From Candidatus Pacearchaeota archaeon (GTDB lineage Archaea; Nanobdellota; Nanobdellia; Pacearchaeales; GW2011-AR1): a stretch of DNA of 64,000 bases. The notes under the pieces were generated by a model. It had not been told where the DNA came from. It saw nothing but the letters and a program-made list of their open reading frames with translations, and did no database searches. A program made the translations under genes and the position numbers. Where the stretch lies: assembly GCA_040879785.1 (NCBI GenBank), contig JBBDJR010000006.1, positions 64,410 to 128,409 on the forward strand. Reading direction: 5' to 3'. This document shows, in pieces, positions 206 through 62,736 of the stretch; positions within the stretch are counted from its first letter, which is position 1; every line of letters begins with the position of its first letter.

Positions 206-347
206 GGCTCCGTAGCTCAGCCTGGTCAGAGCACTGGACTCTTATGAATAACTTTCTTTAGAAAAGAAAGTTCTGCGCTCAAAGAAACTAATACAGCGCT
301 TCTCAGGAGATATCCAGGTGTCGAGGGTTCAAATCCCTCCGGGGCCA
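206..347 (+). tRNA. tRNA-Lys (anticodon CUU) with a 67-nt intron at canonical 37/38 (intron 245-311)
   Basis: Hand-folded cloverleaf: acceptor GGCUCCG/CGGGGCC, D arm GCUC..GAGC, anticodon stem CUGGA/UCCAG, loop CUCUUAA after intron removal, T arm GAGGG-UUCAAAU-CCCUC, discriminator A. The intron has two internal hairpins, and GGAG near its 3' end can pair with loop CUCU (BHB-like). Confidence 0.85.
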
Positions 348-44935: not shown

Positions 44936-45220
44936 ATGAGTTTTAAGAACGCTGCCGCAGACTTTACAACGATGAGTGTTCATATATCTAATGCAAGAAA
45001 TAAGGTAGGAAAGATCATTTCTCTTACACTCTCAATAATCTTTCTAATCATATCAATAATCTCTTTCCTTTTTAGTTGGGTTGCAGGATTAGTCTTTTTG
45101 GGACTATCAGCGCTCTTCTTTGGACTCTATAAATTAGCAAAATACGCGATAAAAACCAATAAGGAATCAATAGAAAAAATTCAGGAAATGAAAGAACCTC
45201 TTCCTCATGAAAAAATTTAA
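44936..45220 (+). CDS. Small membrane protein (hypothetical)
   Basis: Two TM helices. Confidence 0.4.
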   Translation: MSFKNAAADFTTMSVHISNARNKVGKIISLTLSIIFLIISIISFLFSWVAGLVFLGLSALFFGLYKLAKYAIKTNKESIEKIQEMKEPLPHEKI

Positions 45221-45232
45221 TCAATCCTAAAA

Positions 45233-45898
45233 TCACTCTTTTTCCAAAATTTCTGCCCTAATATTCTCATCTTTACACAAATCTACAAACTCTTTTGCAT
45301 CGTCCTCACTCCCCACGATAGACCCCCAATGCATCGGAACCGCAAGAGTTGGTTTTATTAGCTTGGCTGCTTCCGCAGCCTCTTCAGCACTCATTGTAAA
45401 ACGACCTCCAACCGGAAGAAGAGCAACAAATTCCTTTCCAGGTTGCTTGTATCCAGTAAGCTTTTGCATCTCCGGAATATTGTCTGTGTCGCCCGAATGA
45501 TAAATCACAACATCATCCATCTTTATCACGTAACCAATCCAACCCTCTTCTTTAGGATGAAAATGCTTTCCTATATTGTACGCAGGCAACGCATAAACCT
45601 CAACCCCTCCTAAATCAATTTCCCTTCCCGGCTCAATCAATTCAATCTTTACAGGAACGTCAAACCTCGTAATCTTACTCTGGCAATCAGCCGAAGCAAC
45701 AATCCTCGTCCCCTCTTTAACAATTTTCTTCATATCAGAATAACTGCAATGGTCGTAATGGCTGTGCGTAATAAGAATTATATCCGCCGGCTCCAGTCCG
45801 TCTTTAATATTGTAAGGGTCAATATAAATCGTCTTCCCGTTGTTTATCAAAAATCCGGAATGCCCAAGCCACCTCAGCTCAATGCCATTAATTTTCAT
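45233..45898 (-). CDS. MBL-fold metal-dependent hydrolase (UPF0173-like)
   Basis: ILITHSHYDH motif, with downstream H/D ligands. Confidence 0.8.
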   Translation of the reverse strand: MKINGIELRWLGHSGFLINNGKTIYIDPYNIKDGLEPADIILITHSHYDHCSYSDMKKIVKEGTRIVASADCQSKITRFDVPVKIELIEPGREIDLGGVEVYALPAYNIGKHFHPKEEGWIGYVIKMDDVVIYHSGDTDNIPEMQKLTGYKQPGKEFVALLPVGGRFTMSAEEAAEAAKLIKPTLAVPMHWGSIVGSEDDAKEFVDLCKDENIRAEILEKE

Positions 45899-45961: not shown

Positions 45962-46636
45962 TTATTTTTCAGCAAGATCACAAATAAAATAGAATATCTT
46001 CCTAGATTCACTTAGATTTTTAGCCACCTTTGGCTCTGCATTCAAAACTTTTCTCAAAATATAGTCAAAGGTAACATTCATTTTATTCACAATAAATTTT
46101 TCTGGGCAAGAAGAGTTTATTCTATCATGAATATCAAGCATAATAAAAGTAGTTTCGTTGTTTCTTTCTTTACTGAACTCTCCTGAGAATATATCTTTAA
46201 CAGAACCCTTCAAAAATAATTGATTTTTAATTATTCTTTCTAATTTATTCCAAGAATCCTCTGAATTACCTATATCGGGCGTCCAAGCTTTTATTATTTG
46301 GGACAAAGATATGTAAGATGTTGACTGAATAACAAGGTCTTTTCTTTTGTCATAATTTGAAATATACTTTACTTCTTCTTCGTGACCGGAACGTGAAACT
46401 CTAATCAACTTCCCTCCCGAGATTTTATTTATCTTTTCATCAATATTAAAAAATAAATCATGGACTTCCTTGAAAAAATCAGAAGTTTTTGATTTTGGCT
46501 TTTTAGTTATTAAAGTATCCAAATCATTTTCAGCACTTAAAGACCCAAACACTCCAAAAGTCATTATATGTTCAGATTTATTCAATTCATTCTTAAAAAG
46601 AGTTTCAATCTCTTTAAAAGTATAGGATTTTACCAT
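45962..46636 (-). CDS. Pol-beta superfamily nucleotidyltransferase-like protein with a helical C-terminal domain (NTase-1)
   Basis: FGVFGSLSAENDLDTLI fits G-S...D-x-D. Last gene of the 4-gene operon. Confidence 0.5.
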   Translation of the reverse strand: MVKSYTFKEIETLFKNELNKSEHIMTFGVFGSLSAENDLDTLITKKPKSKTSDFFKEVHDLFFNIDEKINKISGGKLIRVSRSGHEEEVKYISNYDKRKDLVIQSTSYISLSQIIKAWTPDIGNSEDSWNKLERIIKNQLFLKGSVKDIFSGEFSKERNNETTFIMLDIHDRINSSCPEKFIVNKMNVTFDYILRKVLNAEPKVAKNLSESRKIFYFICDLAEK

Positions 46637-46638
46637 AT

Positions 46639-47541
46639 TTACTTAACAAACCTCAAGTTTTTAATTTTTCCTTTCTTTTCGTCGCTCAACTCAATCACAA
46701 CAGCCCTACCTTCATGAGCCGCGCCTGGATTAACAAGAACCGTTCTTCCAAGATTATCTTTTCCTACCGACTCGTGAATATGACCTCCAAGATGTAAAAA
46801 GGGCTGCCATCTATTTATAACTCTACGAGCCATTTTAGAACCGTAATGTCTGTTTGGTTTCTTCTTAGATTTTCTTTTAATGTTTTTTCTGATAAAATTA
46901 ATAGCTTTCATAGAAATTTTATCTAACTTCGTATCATATGCAATATTATGTGAAACAAAAATGACTTTGCCTTCTTTATTTTCTTTTCTAAATTTCTTAA
47001 ACAAATTATCTAAAATTTTTCTGTGTTTTCTATAAGCTTTACTTTTAACATATCCCGGAACACTATGCCCTCTCATACCAATAAAAACATAATCTCCAAA
47101 CTTCAATGCCTTGTAATCAAACCTCTTTATATTCTTATATTTCTCAATTCTTTTTGCAAGCGCATTTGTTCTTTCATAATTAGGATGATTATTCTTCTTA
47201 CTTTTATTATCTGAACTTTCAAAATCTGATATATCATCCACCGCTGGCCAATCAATATTTCCTAAAACAGTATAAACAGGAACAGGAAGTTTATTCAAAC
47301 CATTTAAAGAATTTTCAGCCATTTTCAAATCTTTCAGAATCAATTCCTTCCATTTTTTCTTTCCAATAACTTCCCAAAGTTCAACATCCTTCCCATAACA
47401 ATGTTTAAACCAAAGCTTCCGATAATGGAAAGGAGAATAGTCTCCAAGAGAAACAACCAGGTCTATTTTTTCCTTCTTAACCAAAGTTCCAAATTTCTTC
47501 TGAAATTTTCCGTGGAAATCGCCTATTACTAAGATTTTCAT
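46639..47541 (-). CDS. Calcineurin-like metallophosphoesterase (MPE-1) with a Lys-rich insertion
   Basis: ILVIGDFHG, SLGDY, VLGNID, FVSHN and GGHIHE. The ATG at 47541 overlaps the upstream stop (ATGA). Confidence 0.8.
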   Translation of the reverse strand: MKILVIGDFHGKFQKKFGTLVKKEKIDLVVSLGDYSPFHYRKLWFKHCYGKDVELWEVIGKKKWKELILKDLKMAENSLNGLNKLPVPVYTVLGNIDWPAVDDISDFESSDNKSKKNNHPNYERTNALAKRIEKYKNIKRFDYKALKFGDYVFIGMRGHSVPGYVKSKAYRKHRKILDNLFKKFRKENKEGKVIFVSHNIAYDTKLDKISMKAINFIRKNIKRKSKKKPNRHYGSKMARRVINRWQPFLHLGGHIHESVGKDNLGRTVLVNPGAAHEGRAVVIELSDEKKGKIKNLRFVK

Positions 47542-48251
47542 TTTATCAAGTACCTCAAACAATCTTCTGTAAACTTTAAAATATCTTTAAAATCTTCTTC
47601 TTGAAATTCTTTCTTAATTATTCTGCCAGAATTTTTCGGTAGACTTATTTTGTTTTTATAAATCTCTTCGAATTTTTTCAAAAGCATTCCTTTTTTAGAT
47701 ACTCTATAATTAATCAACATTCCTCTGAGAAACGTCTTGAATAAAAAATATGATGATTCTTCTTTTCTGGCATCATCATCAAGACATTTTCTTAATGCAT
47801 GTTTTTGGTCAACGCTCAACATCTCAAATAGGTGTTGTTTTGTTAAAGTTACTTTCCCTTTTCTTAGAGGATTTCTCCCATATAATACCCTAAGATTCTC
47901 ATCCTGTTCTAGATTTTTAAATAAGAATATATCATGAGGATTGTGCTTAACTAATAATTCATCCATCCCTATATAAACACAAGTTATAGAAATTAGTCCT
48001 TTTCTTTTTCTATCAGAAATTCCGCCAAAATCAAAAACGATGTCTTTGTATTTGTTTTCAAGATTTTTTACAATCTCAATCAATTTTAATATCTCTTCCG
48101 CAGATACCACTTCATTATCTGAAACCAGCATTAGATCAATATCTTTTGGATTCTTTGAATATGTAGAAGAACCAAATTGTATCACACTCAAGAGATTTAG
48201 TTTTTGGCTGCATTCTTTAACAAATTCGTCAAGCACCTTTTGTGTTTTCAT
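47538..48251 (-). CDS. Pol-beta superfamily nucleotidyltransferase-like protein with a helical C-terminal domain (NTase-2)
   Basis: VIQFGSSTYSKNPKDIDLMLV fits G-S-x9-D-x-D. ATGA overlaps on both sides. Confidence 0.6.
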   Translation of the reverse strand: MKTQKVLDEFVKECSQKLNLLSVIQFGSSTYSKNPKDIDLMLVSDNEVVSAEEILKLIEIVKNLENKYKDIVFDFGGISDRKRKGLISITCVYIGMDELLVKHNPHDIFLFKNLEQDENLRVLYGRNPLRKGKVTLTKQHLFEMLSVDQKHALRKCLDDDARKEESSYFLFKTFLRGMLINYRVSKKGMLLKKFEEIYKNKISLPKNSGRIIKKEFQEEDFKDILKFTEDCLRYLIK

Positions 48252-48973
48252 TTCAAAAAATTACTCCTCAAGATTTTATTTTTATCTAAATCCATAACAA
48301 TATATCCTCTTTCTCCTAAATTATAAACTTTTGTTTTTCCTATCTTTGCCTTCCCTTTTGCTTCGTGAATATGTCCACAAAAAACTATTGGGGGCTGATA
48401 TTCTTTAATTGCTTTTAAAAGAATTTTTGAGCCTACATGTTTCTTCTTAAAATTAGTATACTCATTTTTTACAACATCAAGATACCCGTGAGGAGGGGCA
48501 TGGGAAATCAAAACACTTTCATTATTCTTGCCCAGTAATTTATTTAACCTTCTCTCCCTATAGGGGTTTCTCTTAGCCATCTTATCAAAGAAGAAATTTC
48601 TAGCATTAGAAATTCTTTCTTCCCATAAATAATCAAAAAATATAAAATTTCTCCCTTTAACCATCTCACTCCCAATGTACTTATGAGTTAAATTCTTAAA
48701 TTTTTTAATTAATGCCCTTGTTCCCTTCCCCGTTTCGTTTCCCTTCAAAATAAAGACAGGAACTTTAAAAGAATCTAACTTTTCTAAGATCTTTTTGTAA
48801 TGTTTATGGAATCTATAGACATAGTCTTCTCGAAACTCATTCTTTTTTCTATAAAAAGGAACTTTAGGAATTTCTCCAACACAAATGACCAATTCAACCT
48901 TTTTTTTCTTTATTATCGACTTTATATTCTTTGGAAGCTTACCATGCATGTCCCCAATAACAAGTATCTTCAT
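48248..48973 (-). CDS. Calcineurin-like metallophosphoesterase (MPE-2)
   Basis: ILVIGDMHG, ILKGNE, ISHAPP and CGHIHE. Start set at the ATG at 48973. Confidence 0.8.
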   Translation of the reverse strand: MKILVIGDMHGKLPKNIKSIIKKKKVELVICVGEIPKVPFYRKKNEFREDYVYRFHKHYKKILEKLDSFKVPVFILKGNETGKGTRALIKKFKNLTHKYIGSEMVKGRNFIFFDYLWEERISNARNFFFDKMAKRNPYRERRLNKLLGKNNESVLISHAPPHGYLDVVKNEYTNFKKKHVGSKILLKAIKEYQPPIVFCGHIHEAKGKAKIGKTKVYNLGERGYIVMDLDKNKILRSNFLK

Positions 48974-49067
48974 AAAACACTTTAGCAATAACCATTTAAA
49001 AAACTTGCACAAATCACACTAACTAAAAAAATAAAAAATAAAATAAAAAGAAATTTATTGAAGAAGT

Positions 49068-49247
49068 TTACTCGTCGTTTTCATCATCGGAGTCGTCTTC
49101 GCTGTCATCATCGTCAGAAGAATCTTCACTGTCCTCGTTCTTGTCCTCTTCGCCAGACTTGTCGCTAGTATCTTCTGACTCTTTAGAACCAGAATCTTTA
49201 GATTCTTCTTCGTTGGTTTCCTTGTTTTCTGTATCTTCGTGTTCCAT
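49068..49247 (-). CDS. 59-aa hyper-acidic, Ser-rich protein
   Basis: Hand-translated MEHEDTENKETNEEESKDSGSKESEDTSDKSGEEDKNEDSEDSSDDDDSEDDSDDENDE. Same strand as the operon and just upstream of it. Confidence 0.45.
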   Translation of the reverse strand: MEHEDTENKETNEEESKDSGSKESEDTSDKSGEEDKNEDSEDSSDDDDSEDDSDDENDE

Positions 49248-49359: not shown

Positions 49360-49737
49360 TTAAAGCATCACACTATCTTTAAAATTATTGAAGTGAGGAT
49401 CTCCCGTCAGAACCTTGGCATTATTCACTCTGGCAGTATGCATTATAATTACATCTGTTATTCCTATTTTTTTCTCTTTCTTTTTCATTTTATTATAAAA
49501 GCCCCCGAAAGAAAGAATAAACTCGTCATTAACTCCAACTATCTTAGACTTCATTTTTATAAAACTAAAAAACTTATTAAAACTCCATCCTTCCTTATTT
49601 GACTTATAGCTTAATTCCAGAAGAACAATTGCCGGAGTGATCACCTCGTCATTATCAAGGTAGTTCTTTACGGTTTCTCCCTTTTTAGACCCTTCAAAAA
49701 ACTCTATCCAGGCATAAGTATCAAAAACTATTGCCAT
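49360..49737 (-). CDS. vapC: PIN-domain toxin VapC
   Basis: IVFDTYAWIE, VLLEL, ITDVIIM and LTGDPHF acidic quartet. Confidence 0.8.
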   Translation of the reverse strand: MAIVFDTYAWIEFFEGSKKGETVKNYLDNDEVITPAIVLLELSYKSNKEGWSFNKFFSFIKMKSKIVGVNDEFILSFGGFYNKMKKKEKKIGITDVIIMHTARVNNAKVLTGDPHFNNFKDSVML

Positions 49738-49943
49738 CTTTCTTCATCTCCCATAATTTCCTCTCTTTCTTTCCTTGTAAAACTTTTAGTTTTGCCCTTA
49801 AGAGCACCGAACATTTTTTGAGGTACTTTCTCCTTATGGATTATAAGATTTTCTAGCAACTTATCAAAAGACTTAACCTTTTCCTTCTCTTTCAGTTCCT
49901 TTATCAAATGGAATGTCTTTTCCTTAATAGCTATCGTTTTCAT
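49728..49943 (-). CDS. vapB: VapB-like antitoxin
   Basis: 71-aa gene overlapping vapC by 10 nt, with a small charged N-terminal beta/helix pattern. Confidence 0.55.
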   Translation of the reverse strand: MKTIAIKEKTFHLIKELKEKEKVKSFDKLLENLIIHKEKVPQKMFGALKGKTKSFTRKEREEIMGDEERWQ

Positions 49944-51459: not shown

Positions 51460-51948
51460 ATGGATGAAACACATAAGTATAATCTTGGAGAAACAGTTGC
51501 TATTCCTAGAAGAGATAAAGAAAAATTAGGAATAATAGAAAGAATTCTGATAAAAGAAGAACTTGAAATAAATAATGAAGAAAGAAAACATATAAGAAAT
51601 GTAGAATATGGTGTTCGTCCTGAAGCAATTTCTGTTTTCACTTATGATGAAAAATCATTAGAGCCTTCAGAAAGGCAATTGCATAGAGATGCATTTAGGG
51701 TCCAAAACGGCCAAGTTATACTAAATAACAATAAAGAATATATTGTCGAAGATGCAAGAGATAAAACTCATTCCGCTCCAGGAGCAAGAATGGGTCTCGA
51801 AGATTCCTGGGAAGTTTGGCATGTTAAAGCAAGGGAATTGTCTGATGGAAATTACAATCCTAATGGAAAACTCATAGAGTTTGACCAAAACAAGGACGAG
51901 CCCATAGATATTGTAAAGGAAATGAGATTGAAAAAGAATTATGAATAG
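51460..51948 (+). CDS. Hypothetical protein
   Basis: ORF only; lies between convergent gatB and gatA. Confidence 0.4.
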   Translation: MDETHKYNLGETVAIPRRDKEKLGIIERILIKEELEINNEERKHIRNVEYGVRPEAISVFTYDEKSLEPSERQLHRDAFRVQNGQVILNNNKEYIVEDARDKTHSAPGARMGLEDSWEVWHVKARELSDGNYNPNGKLIEFDQNKDEPIDIVKEMRLKKNYE

Positions 51949-62602: not shown

Positions 62603-62736
62603 TGGGCCTGCCAGGACTCGAACCTGGATCAACGGGGTATTCCGAAGCCCGCTCGCATTATGACAAAACGAAAAAGCTTGTCTCCCGCAAACTTCCTCAC
62701 CGAAACCCGTCATTCTGTCCATTGAACTACAGACCC
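62603..62736 (-). tRNA. tRNA-Arg (anticodon UCG) with a 62-nt intron after position 37
   Basis: Reverse complement folds as GGGUCUG-UA-GUUC-AAUGGACA-GAAU-G-ACGGG-UUUCGG[intron]C-CCCGU-UGAU-CCAGG-UUCGAGU-CCUGG-CAGGCCC-A. Confidence 0.8.

Follow-up and report, generated by a model that had tools for sequence, protein, structure and literature searches.

Four consecutive minus-strand genes in a 64-kb stretch of contig JBBDJR010000006.1 from a Candidatus Pacearchaeota archaeon (the whole stretch is called the window hereafter) encode two calcineurin-like metallophosphoesterases (MPE2 and MPE1) and two rare nucleotidyltransferase-like proteins (NT2 and NT1). Judged from the sequence and its relatives, the block is a real, tightly organised and lineage-specific cluster, in which an orphan and probably active nucleotidyltransferase (NTase) is paired with a phosphoesterase that belongs to the DPANN core. 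DPANN archaea have very small genomes, with many conserved genes that lack a known role. The partners are of known kinds, namely an NTase of the aminoglycoside nucleotidyltransferase (ANT) and minimal nucleotidyltransferase (MNT) class and a metallophosphoesterase (MPE) of the calcineurin-like diesterase kind; their pairing is undescribed, and the block is not a new category. We are confident of the anatomy and evolutionary history of the block as described here. Its genes and signals are the following (aa, amino acids; nt, nucleotides).

48248–48973, minus strand: MPE2, 241 aa, calcineurin-like metallophosphoesterase (type C, short form), first in the block
47538–48251, minus strand: NT2, 237 aa, two-domain Pol-beta-type nucleotidyltransferase, N-terminal NTase fold and C-terminal helical domain
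46639–47541, minus strand: MPE1, 300 aa, calcineurin-like metallophosphoesterase of type A (COG2129/Metallophos_3-like)
45962–46636, minus strand: NT1, 224 aa, NTase-like, with a helical C-terminal half
48248–48251, minus strand: ATGA overlap of the MPE2 stop and NT2 start, read from the sequence
47538–47541, minus strand: ATGA overlap of the NT2 stop and MPE1 start, read from the sequence; the evolutionarily conserved junction
46637–46638, minus strand: 2-nt spacer between the MPE1 stop and NT1 start (TAA-AT-ATG), read from the sequence
48994–49000, minus strand: TTTAAAT, TATA-box-like element 21–27 nt 5' of the MPE2 ATG, candidate archaeal promoter
48266–48269, minus strand: GAGG, Shine-Dalgarno-like, 14 nt 5' of the NT2 start, within the coding end of MPE2
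47553–47556, minus strand: GAGG, Shine-Dalgarno-like, 11 nt 5' of the MPE1 start
46651–46654, minus strand: GAGG, Shine-Dalgarno-like, 14 nt 5' of the NT1 start

A first-pass annotation, made from the letters of this DNA, had described the four genes, the two ATGA overlaps and the 2-nt gap, the metal motifs of both MPEs with the deviating GE in motif II of MPE2, and a G-S...D-x-D signature followed by a helical domain in both NTases. It had placed them beside a VapBC pair, a 59-aa acidic gene, a hydrolase of the metallo-beta-lactamase (MBL) fold, ftsZ and gatB. All of this was borne out. The open reading frames (ORFs) and junctions agreed with the sequence, five metal motifs could be read in MPEs that passed the Pfam thresholds, the NTase residues were invariant in each family, the models were mainly helical C-terminally, and every neighbour was present.

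The window has 53 pairs of adjacent genes on the same strand; only three of these overlap by 4 nt, two of them inside the block, and 12 have a tight junction, of which three consecutive ones lie inside the block. Apart from the two in the block, none of the window's 65 genes of at least 100 aa has an NTase motif. GAGG occurs ten times in the 3139-nt block, and three of these ten copies sit 10–14 nt before the starts of NT2, MPE1 and NT1. No such copy precedes the start of MPE2. A T-rich tract between MPE2 and the acidic 59-aa ORF precedes the TTTAAAT box, from which a leaderless or near-leaderless transcript beginning at MPE2 can be inferred. In archaeal operons the first gene is typically leaderless and the internal genes are led by Shine-Dalgarno motifs, and the signals of the block fit this pattern. 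From packing and signals, the four genes look like one operon. A scan for bacterial promoters and terminators (19 sites versus 19.2 expected) was uninformative for an archaeon.

The longest ORF of MPE2 opens at a TTG (49012). The start was assigned to the ATG at 48973 because it yields the conserved MKILVIGD and fits the family alignment. On an identical public contig, the automatic gene call (L009:1480–2181, window 48248–48949; related loci carry L numbers) uses an internal ATG 24 nt later. The resulting 233-aa protein would lose motif I (GDxHG). The guanine-plus-cytosine (G+C) content of the block genes, including the core gene MPE1, is 0.28–0.32 (0.24–0.29 at third codon positions), compared with 0.37–0.44 in the flanking FtsZ, MBL, GatB and GatA genes and 35% in the window.

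The pairing was followed in 15 distinct informative loci recovered from NT2, the window included; the genome scan used an alignment of 11 closer NT2 sequences. All homologues came from metagenome-assembled genomes of Pacearchaeota, Woesearchaeota and Nanoarchaeota. An MPE gene lies directly beside NT2 in 13 of the 15 loci; in L007, a class-II aminoacyl-tRNA synthetase (aaRS) gene stands between the two. The order is NT2 then MPE in 11 loci, and nine of these 11, including NT2–MPE1 of the window, have the same ATGA junction, which spans MPE types A, B and C. The order MPE then NT2 was seen in the window (MPE2–NT2), L005 and L047 only. Since NT2 adjoins an MPE gene in 13 of 15 loci and usually precedes it with an ATGA junction, the conserved unit is NT2–MPE1 and not MPE2 with NT2. 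In different genomes, NT2 is joined to an MPE of type A, B or C at similar NT2 divergence. NT1, NT2 and an MPE occur together in the window, in L003/L011 (NT2-MPE-NT1) and in L006 (NT1-NT2-MPE); the L003/L011 trio lies in another chromosomal context, with RIO kinase and SRP54.

Adjacency of MPE and NTase genes thus recurs outside the window and extends to other NTase-like genes. Divergent ORFs with an NTase motif fill six of the 76 slots adjacent to a type-A MPE gene and three of the 188 other slots (Fisher's exact test, p = 0.019). Among the divergent G-S/D-x-D proteins near MPEs, two pass the Pfam threshold for NTP_transf_2. We consider it fairly likely that NT2 and MPE are functionally coupled.

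NT2 retrieved 55 homologues in a word-index search, and only 44 matches at E <= 1e-3 came from an exhaustive HMMER run of the family profile against 1.84 billion representative proteins. By these searches, the family is an orphan restricted to DPANN archaea. Its NTP_transf_2 score in Pfam is 18.3 bits, under the cut-off of 21, and 13 of 28 family members match weakly. The assignment of NT2 to the NTases therefore rests on fold and motifs. Conservation counts and the structural model are based on a 28-sequence alignment, in which G27, S28, D37 and D39 of the FGSS...D37-x-D39 signature are invariant. At the position of the third carboxylate, on a predicted strand (residues 71–75), D74 is Asp in 24 of the 28 sequences and Asn in four. 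Because of this conservation, NT2 looks catalytically competent, with all catalytic motifs kept.

The AlphaFold2 model of NT2 (mean predicted local distance difference test score, pLDDT, 91.4) has a mainly helical C-terminal half. In a Foldseek search of the PDB it was matched best by AAD(9) and AadA, with both domains aligned (E 1e-5 to 1e-2, template modelling (TM) score 0.55–0.63). The alignments with ANT(9)/AadA cover about 275 columns, with TM scores of 0.59–0.63, an identity of 13–15% and a probability of 1.00 for NTases. The MNT antitoxins of MNT-HEPN pairs, ANT(4') and HalB of the Hailong system (TM 0.44) followed, and cGAS, CdnC and terminal uridylyltransferases (TUTases) were near the bottom of the list. 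NT2 and ANT(9)/AAD(9) or AadA have the same two-domain build, a Pol-beta NTase fold followed by a helical domain, and NT2 has kept the residues of G-S, D-x-D and the third carboxylate. Membership of the ANT(9)/AadA sequence family was rejected on the low identity and on a search with the NT2 profile against all PDB sequences, which up to E = 10 returned chance-level matches and no ANT/AadA or other nucleotidyltransferase chain. In contrast to ANT(9)/AadA, NT2 is archaeal, orphan and located beside a phosphoesterase, with neither a resistance context nor evidence of an aminoglycoside substrate. ANT enzymes transfer adenosine monophosphate (AMP) to hydroxyls of small molecules, and MNT antitoxins transfer it to a tyrosine of their partner protein (PDB titles).

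Both MPEs scored above the Pfam cut-offs for Metallophos_3 (28.2 bits) and Metallophos (21.5 bits), MPE2 with 51.2 (E 1.4e-13) and 48.3 bits (E 2.1e-12) and MPE1 with 44.8 and 45.3 bits; the E-values for both proteins and families range from 1e-11 to 1e-13. Metal motifs I to V read GDFHG, GD, GN, SH and GHIHE in MPE1 and GDMHG, GE, GN, SH and GHIHE in MPE2. The GE of motif II, a conservative change, is confined to MPE2, all eleven aligned relatives having GD. In both proteins, motif III is without the His of GNH[DE], as in MPEs of the diesterase type. YfcE and MJ0936 are MPEs that lack this His and act as diesterases, cleaving p-nitrophenyl esters of nucleotides. Both MPEs are also strongly basic (isoelectric point (pI) about 10), as are neighbouring proteins such as GatB.

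MPE1 has more than 1000 homologues, the best of which are 58–74% identical and all from DPANN archaea. No close relatives of MPE2 were found among species-representative genomes. MPE1 and MPE2 share 26% identity (E 2e-16). A neighbour-joining tree separated the MPEs into three types: A (MPE1, L018), B (L002, L003, L010, L014, L021) and the short form C (MPE2, L006, L007, L008). From these sequences, MPE1 and MPE2 are old paralog types rather than recent duplicates. When the family profile (A5) was compared with the PDB, aq_1956 (2YVT) came first (1.7e-15), followed by the RNA lariat debranching enzyme Dbr1 (1.7e-8) and MPPED2 (1e-4). With aq_1956, an 'Icc-related' member of Metallophos_3/COG2129, the MPEs have in common the C-terminal arrangement H-x-G-S ... 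P ... G-H-x-H-E; MPPED2 and Dbr1 are more distant relatives. Types A, B and C differ from the aq_1956 group by lineage-specific insertions, and MPE2 also by its GE in motif II. The literature on the MPE-NTase gene pair, COG2129, Metallophos_3, TT1561 and aq_1956 yielded nothing functional, and no physiological substrate was found there for any member of the COG2129/Metallophos_3 subgroup.

One Pacearchaeota locus (L064:157–7574) carries four MPE paralogs, a small one of 203 aa on the minus strand and then types B, A and C. Between types B and A, an NT2-like gene is encoded on the opposite strand, and the cluster is followed by the same MBL hydrolase. This locus looks like a 'full' version from which the others may have lost genes.

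NT1 belongs elsewhere. Ten homologues were retrieved by word-index search, and the family was represented by 15 species-level loci. G28, G31, S32, D38 and D40 of its FGSL...D38-x-D40 signature are invariant in the family. The strand equivalent to F-D-F of NT2 (D74) reads L-I-R-V in NT1, with R79 invariant. Because this Arg sits where NT2 has D74, the third catalytic carboxylate is probably missing from NT1. Lack of this carboxylate, which the first-pass annotation had named as counting against its own reading, appears to apply to NT1 and not to NT2. The AlphaFold2 model of NT1 (pLDDT 88.6) has secondary-structure elements in the same order as NT2, and its leading Foldseek matches, AAD(9) and MNT, were weak (E about 1e-2, TM about 0.3). 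NT1 had no match in Pfam and chance-level matches only among PDB sequences. An MPE gene is adjacent to NT1 in four of the 15 loci, within 4 kb in three more and absent in eight. The commonest neighbours of NT1 across these loci are class-II aaRS genes (D/K/N), some with 4-nt overlaps on both sides. In L073 (2704–5955; same genome as L057), NT1 stands between two such genes, with a 1-nt gap after the first and a 4-nt overlap with the second. By sequence and synteny, NT1 is a separate small DPANN family that is loosely tied to the MPEs.

The closest relatives of MPE1 (L025–L028), at 58–70% identity, occupy the same syntenic slot without any NTase. Their neighbourhood comprises GatE/GatB, a class-II aaRS, the MPE, the MBL hydrolase, FtsZ, a nitroreductase and MnmA; GatD and two class-II aaRS genes (D/K/N) are also among the recurring neighbours. 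One of these loci, L027, has the exact backbone of the window: GatA, GatB (opposite strand), MPE, MBL hydrolase, a small reverse ORF, FtsZ and nitroreductase. The window's gains over L027 are MPE2, NT2, VapBC and the acidic ORF, all 5' of MPE1, and NT1 3' of it. Of the 44 loci anchored on an MPE, about 34 are free of NTase-like ORFs within 4 kb; the others bear NT2, NT1 or other divergent G-S/D-x-D proteins. By its conserved placement, MPE1 is a lineage-core gene in the ancestral position 5' of the MBL hydrolase and FtsZ. The remaining genes (VapBC, acidic ORF, MPE2, NT2, NT1) look like accessory additions to a housekeeping stretch. NT2 would then be an optional add-on to the primary role of the MPE, because NT2 needs an MPE neighbour and the MPE does not need NT2.

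The reading that we favour as a whole, at somewhat under even confidence, is that accessory NT2, NT1 and MPE2 have gathered around the core MPE1, with NT2 and MPE acting as a write-erase or modifier-target pair. NT2 would use a nucleoside triphosphate to nucleotidylylate a hydroxyl. This hydroxyl might belong to a protein side chain, perhaps one of the MPE, or to a small molecule or other substrate common to both enzymes. The co-translated MPE, of the diesterase type without the motif-III His, would hydrolyse the nucleotide phosphodiester so formed. The outcome would be either a write/erase cycle or a modifier and its target, and NT1 would be a degenerate partner with a non-catalytic or regulatory part. 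This mechanism was preferred because the structural kin of NT2 transfer AMP to hydroxyls, because the MPEs are without the motif-III His and because writers and erasers of this sort have precedents. The write/erase chemistry, taken by itself, is possible and decidedly tentative.

Pairs of an AMPylase and a metal-dependent hydrolase that acts as the eraser are established, namely SidM/SidD, GlnE, and SelO with an MBL-fold RNase Z deAMPylase (PMC12663964). The logic is the same in SidM(DrrA)/SidD, GlnE and SelO/RNase Z, and the AMPylase has the NTase fold in SidM and GlnE. Their erasers, however, are a PPM phosphatase and an MBL protein, not calcineurin-like MPEs. No homology of the block proteins to any of these pairs was detected, and the relation is one of analogy, not membership. 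A bolder version holds that NT2 and MPE form an undescribed, DPANN-specific switch for reversible nucleotidylylation, or a synthase/degrader pair for short oligonucleotides, with NT1 as a pseudo-enzyme regulator. We regard this as distinctly unlikely; such a system might adjust the metabolism of Asp/Asn-tRNA, or some other core process, in host-dependent cells, and would establish calcineurin-like phosphoesterases as a new class of de-nucleotidylylase.

It is also possible, at rather long odds, that the genes are not coupled at all and that NT2, NT1 and MPE2 are unrelated accessory genes gathered in a variable spot of a packed housekeeping region. Several observations speak for this and weigh against the favoured reading. 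All loci come from one related DPANN clade, so that shared ancestry could explain part of the adjacency. Most type-A MPE genes have no NTase nearby, and since the MPE family is mostly NTase-free, acting as an 'eraser' cannot be its main function. The 4-nt overlaps also join unrelated genes, tying aaRS genes to MPE and, on both sides, to NT1 (aaRS-NT1-aaRS in L057/L073). Overlap alone is therefore no proof of functional coupling, as compact genomes overlap unrelated genes too. NT1 is found beside class-II aaRS genes no less often than beside an MPE, and in L004, NT2 stands alone without an MPE neighbour.

The switching of NT2 between MPE types could likewise be explained without a functional bond, by gene loss from a locus of tandem MPE paralogs such as L064. 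The 5' ends of such tandem paralogs are nearly identical (ATGAAAAT...), and unequal recombination between them could exchange the MPE partner yet preserve the ATGA junction. Three of the NT2-linked MPE genes (L007, L016, L017) look damaged, which could be decay or an error of metagenome assembly. The MPE gene of L016 (1080–1652) is truncated to 190 aa, that of L017 (1326–2160) is split into parts of 69 and 199 aa, and that of L007 (8013–8732) ends at GHIH. Against a chance gathering stands the NT2-MPE-NT1 trio in a different chromosomal context, beside RIO kinase and SRP54. Adjacency is also kept where the order is reversed (L005, L047), several unrelated NTase families are enriched beside MPE, and the three GAGG motifs are placed before internal starts.

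An involvement of the pair in the healing and tailing of RNA or tRNA 3' ends appears unlikely. The MPE would clear 2',3'-cyclic or 3'-phosphates or cleave 2'-5' or 3'-5' diesters, NT2 would extend the 3'-OH, and the link to Asp/Asn-tRNA genes would be functional. NTases and phosphohydrolases are combined in RNA-end repair elsewhere, as in bacterial CCA-adding enzymes, which carry an HD domain, and in Pnkp with its MPE phosphatase domain. The recurring neighbours GatB/GatE/GatD, two class-II aaRS genes (D/K/N) and the MBL hydrolase are consistent with such a role, as are the frequent flanking of NT1 by aaRS genes, the position of Dbr1 next after aq_1956 among the profile matches and the very basic MPEs. 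NT2, however, resembles ANT and MNT enzymes, whose substrates are small molecules and proteins. Its Foldseek results lack CCA-adding enzymes, poly(A) polymerases and TUTases or rank them poorly, and an identity of NT2 as one of these enzymes was rejected on the fold matches. No RNA-binding domain is present, GatB and other neighbours are basic too, and the synteny with aaRS genes is absent from the L003/L011 context.

A signalling or defence pair, in which NT2 makes a cyclic, 2'-5' or oligo-dA signal that the MPE degrades, is improbable. The first-pass annotation had described the context as defence-island-like. That view stands in so far as VapBC lies just upstream, VapBC, the acidic ORF, MPE2, NT2 and NT1 look accessory and the spot is variable, and fails in that MPE1, MBL, FtsZ, GatB and GatA are housekeeping genes. 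PADLOC matched NT2 to PDC-S09 (5.7e-5) and the MPEs to PDC-S10 (2.4e-17 and 2.4e-9), but the matches are partial and at superfamily level, covering only residues 149–218 in MPE2. PDC-S09 (a small NTase) and PDC-S10 (a metallophosphoesterase) are candidate systems of one gene each that lack experimental validation (PMC12988326). The present context differs from theirs in its housekeeping synteny, with only a VapBC pair nearby. The MPE profile match to the 2'-5' diesterase Dbr1 and the presence of HalB among the structural matches of NT2 are further points in favour of a signal. HalB makes oligodeoxyadenylate (PMC13434031).

Against a signalling pair, the block contains no effector or sensor gene, and MPE1 is a core syntenic gene. 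PADLOC gave no CBASS match (cyclic oligonucleotide-based antiphage signalling system), and a CBASS, CD-NTase (cGAS/DncV-like nucleotidyltransferase) or OAS type was rejected, since the Foldseek probability of CdnC, cGAS and OAS2 is at most 0.15 for NT2 and NT1 and an effector gene is missing. Hailong was discarded as well: HalB is an MNT-like NTase that NT2 matches weakly (TM 0.44), and none of the four genes encodes a HalA-like membrane protein that could be the effector beside NT2. A PHROGs search returned a generic phosphoesterase family only, no relatives turned up on viral contigs scanned with alignments of NT2 and MPE-A, and a BFVD fold search gave generic phage NTases only. The first-pass annotation had recognised no named system in the block, and it matches none; it was taken off the list of defence-island candidates.

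That the block consists of two translationally coupled MPE–NTase copies, derived from a tandem duplication and kept by selection, is just as improbable. The first-pass annotation had proposed this from the alternation of MPE, NTase, MPE and NTase. The two MPEs are homologous. NT1 and NT2 have the same predicted order of secondary structure and the same G-S/D-x-D motif, but sequence comparison detected no homology between them (BLAST E 0.057; hhalign probability about 3% in two rounds of profile-profile comparison; not significant), and each has its own orthologs. A DNA repeat search of the block found AT-rich chance matches only. The unit elsewhere is NT2–MPE and not MPE–NT2, NT1 and NT2 occur with a single MPE in L003 and L006, and the two MPEs are of different old paralog types with orthologs of their own, which stand side by side in L064. 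The block is therefore not two copies of one module, because NT2–MPE1 is the conserved pair and MPE2 and NT1 come from old, distinct families; a recent tandem duplication of a two-gene module was rejected likewise, only the MPE halves being homologous.

A toxin-antitoxin-like pair, in which NT2 would neutralise a toxic MPE by nucleotidylylation as MntA does HepT, is the least probable of all: MNT antitoxins are among the best structural matches of NT2, and the gene order, NT2 before MPE with codons overlapping, is the usual one of antitoxin and toxin, but the MPE is present without NT2 in most genomes and is therefore not toxic alone. The likeness to MntA/HepT extends to the NTase domains of both NT2 and NT1, to a gene placed 5' of its partner with overlapping codons and to a known chemistry of protein hydroxyl nucleotidylylation. 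In contrast to MntA/HepT, the partner of NT2 is a metallophosphoesterase, viable alone in most genomes, and not a HEPN RNase. The MNT-HEPN system (type VII) was dismissed on these grounds, since Pfam found no HEPN domain in the block and the NT2 and NT1 alignments hold no conserved Rx4-6H.

The favoured pairing brings together a common, lineage-core metallophosphoesterase in a conserved neighbourhood of translation and cell-division genes and an apparently active, orphan nucleotidyltransferase family that is almost never found without an adjoining phosphoesterase. A second, probably degenerate NTase-like family (NT1) shares the region. If NT2 and MPE do share a nucleotide-phosphodiester chemistry, a calcineurin-like enzyme would be added to the few known de-nucleotidylylases, and COG2129-type phosphoesterases would gain a first functional handle. 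If they do not, the block is a lineage-specific cluster of hypothetical proteins.

The genes that flank the block on its own strand are as follows.

49728–49943, minus strand: VapB-like gene (Pfam VapB 0.017, weak)
49360–49737, minus strand: PIN/VapC gene (Pfam PIN 4.6e-14)
49068–49247, minus strand: hyper-acidic 59-aa ORF, pI 4.05, rich in D/E/S, G+C 0.43 and thus above its neighbours
45233–45898, minus strand: MBL-fold hydrolase (Lactamase_B_3, UPF0173-like; Pfam 1.2e-29)

The VapB-like gene, the PIN/VapC gene and the acidic ORF are probably outside the operon. The acidic ORF had no family match and no counterpart in any related locus. In L001/L014 (L014:4321–4966), a PIN gene 29% identical to that of the window lies with a small partner ORF directly 5' of NT2. 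The MBL hydrolase follows 3' of the MPE in L006, L008, L017, L021, L025, L027 and L064. In the window, a 63-nt spacer with a T-run and a TTAAAAA element precedes its gene, which probably has its own promoter. A NUDIX hydrolase gene is inserted between the type-C MPE and the MBL hydrolase in L006 (7526–7930), and an ORF of L008 (7563–8060) has the same position. NUDIX would be a third family of nucleotide-diphosphate or phosphoester hydrolases in this stretch.

Two plus-strand ORFs near the block had no Pfam match. One, of 162 aa (51460–51948), lies between GatB and GatA. The other, of 94 aa (44936–45220), lies between the MBL hydrolase and FtsZ and looks like a membrane protein; its positional counterpart in L027 has 82 aa and is on the opposite strand. 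Towards the ends of the window, Rfam identified tRNA genes of 142 nt (206–347, plus strand) and 134 nt (62603–62736, minus strand). Both are much longer than 75 nt; they probably have introns, in keeping with an archaeal origin. ARAGORN missed the gene at 206–347 and called part of that at 62603–62736 (tRNA-Asp). Three contigs with archaeal MPE or NT1 genes (L035, L065 and L077) are filed under Methanosarcinales, Omnitrophota and Paceibacterota bins, a placement that probably reflects binning or labelling errors in the public records.

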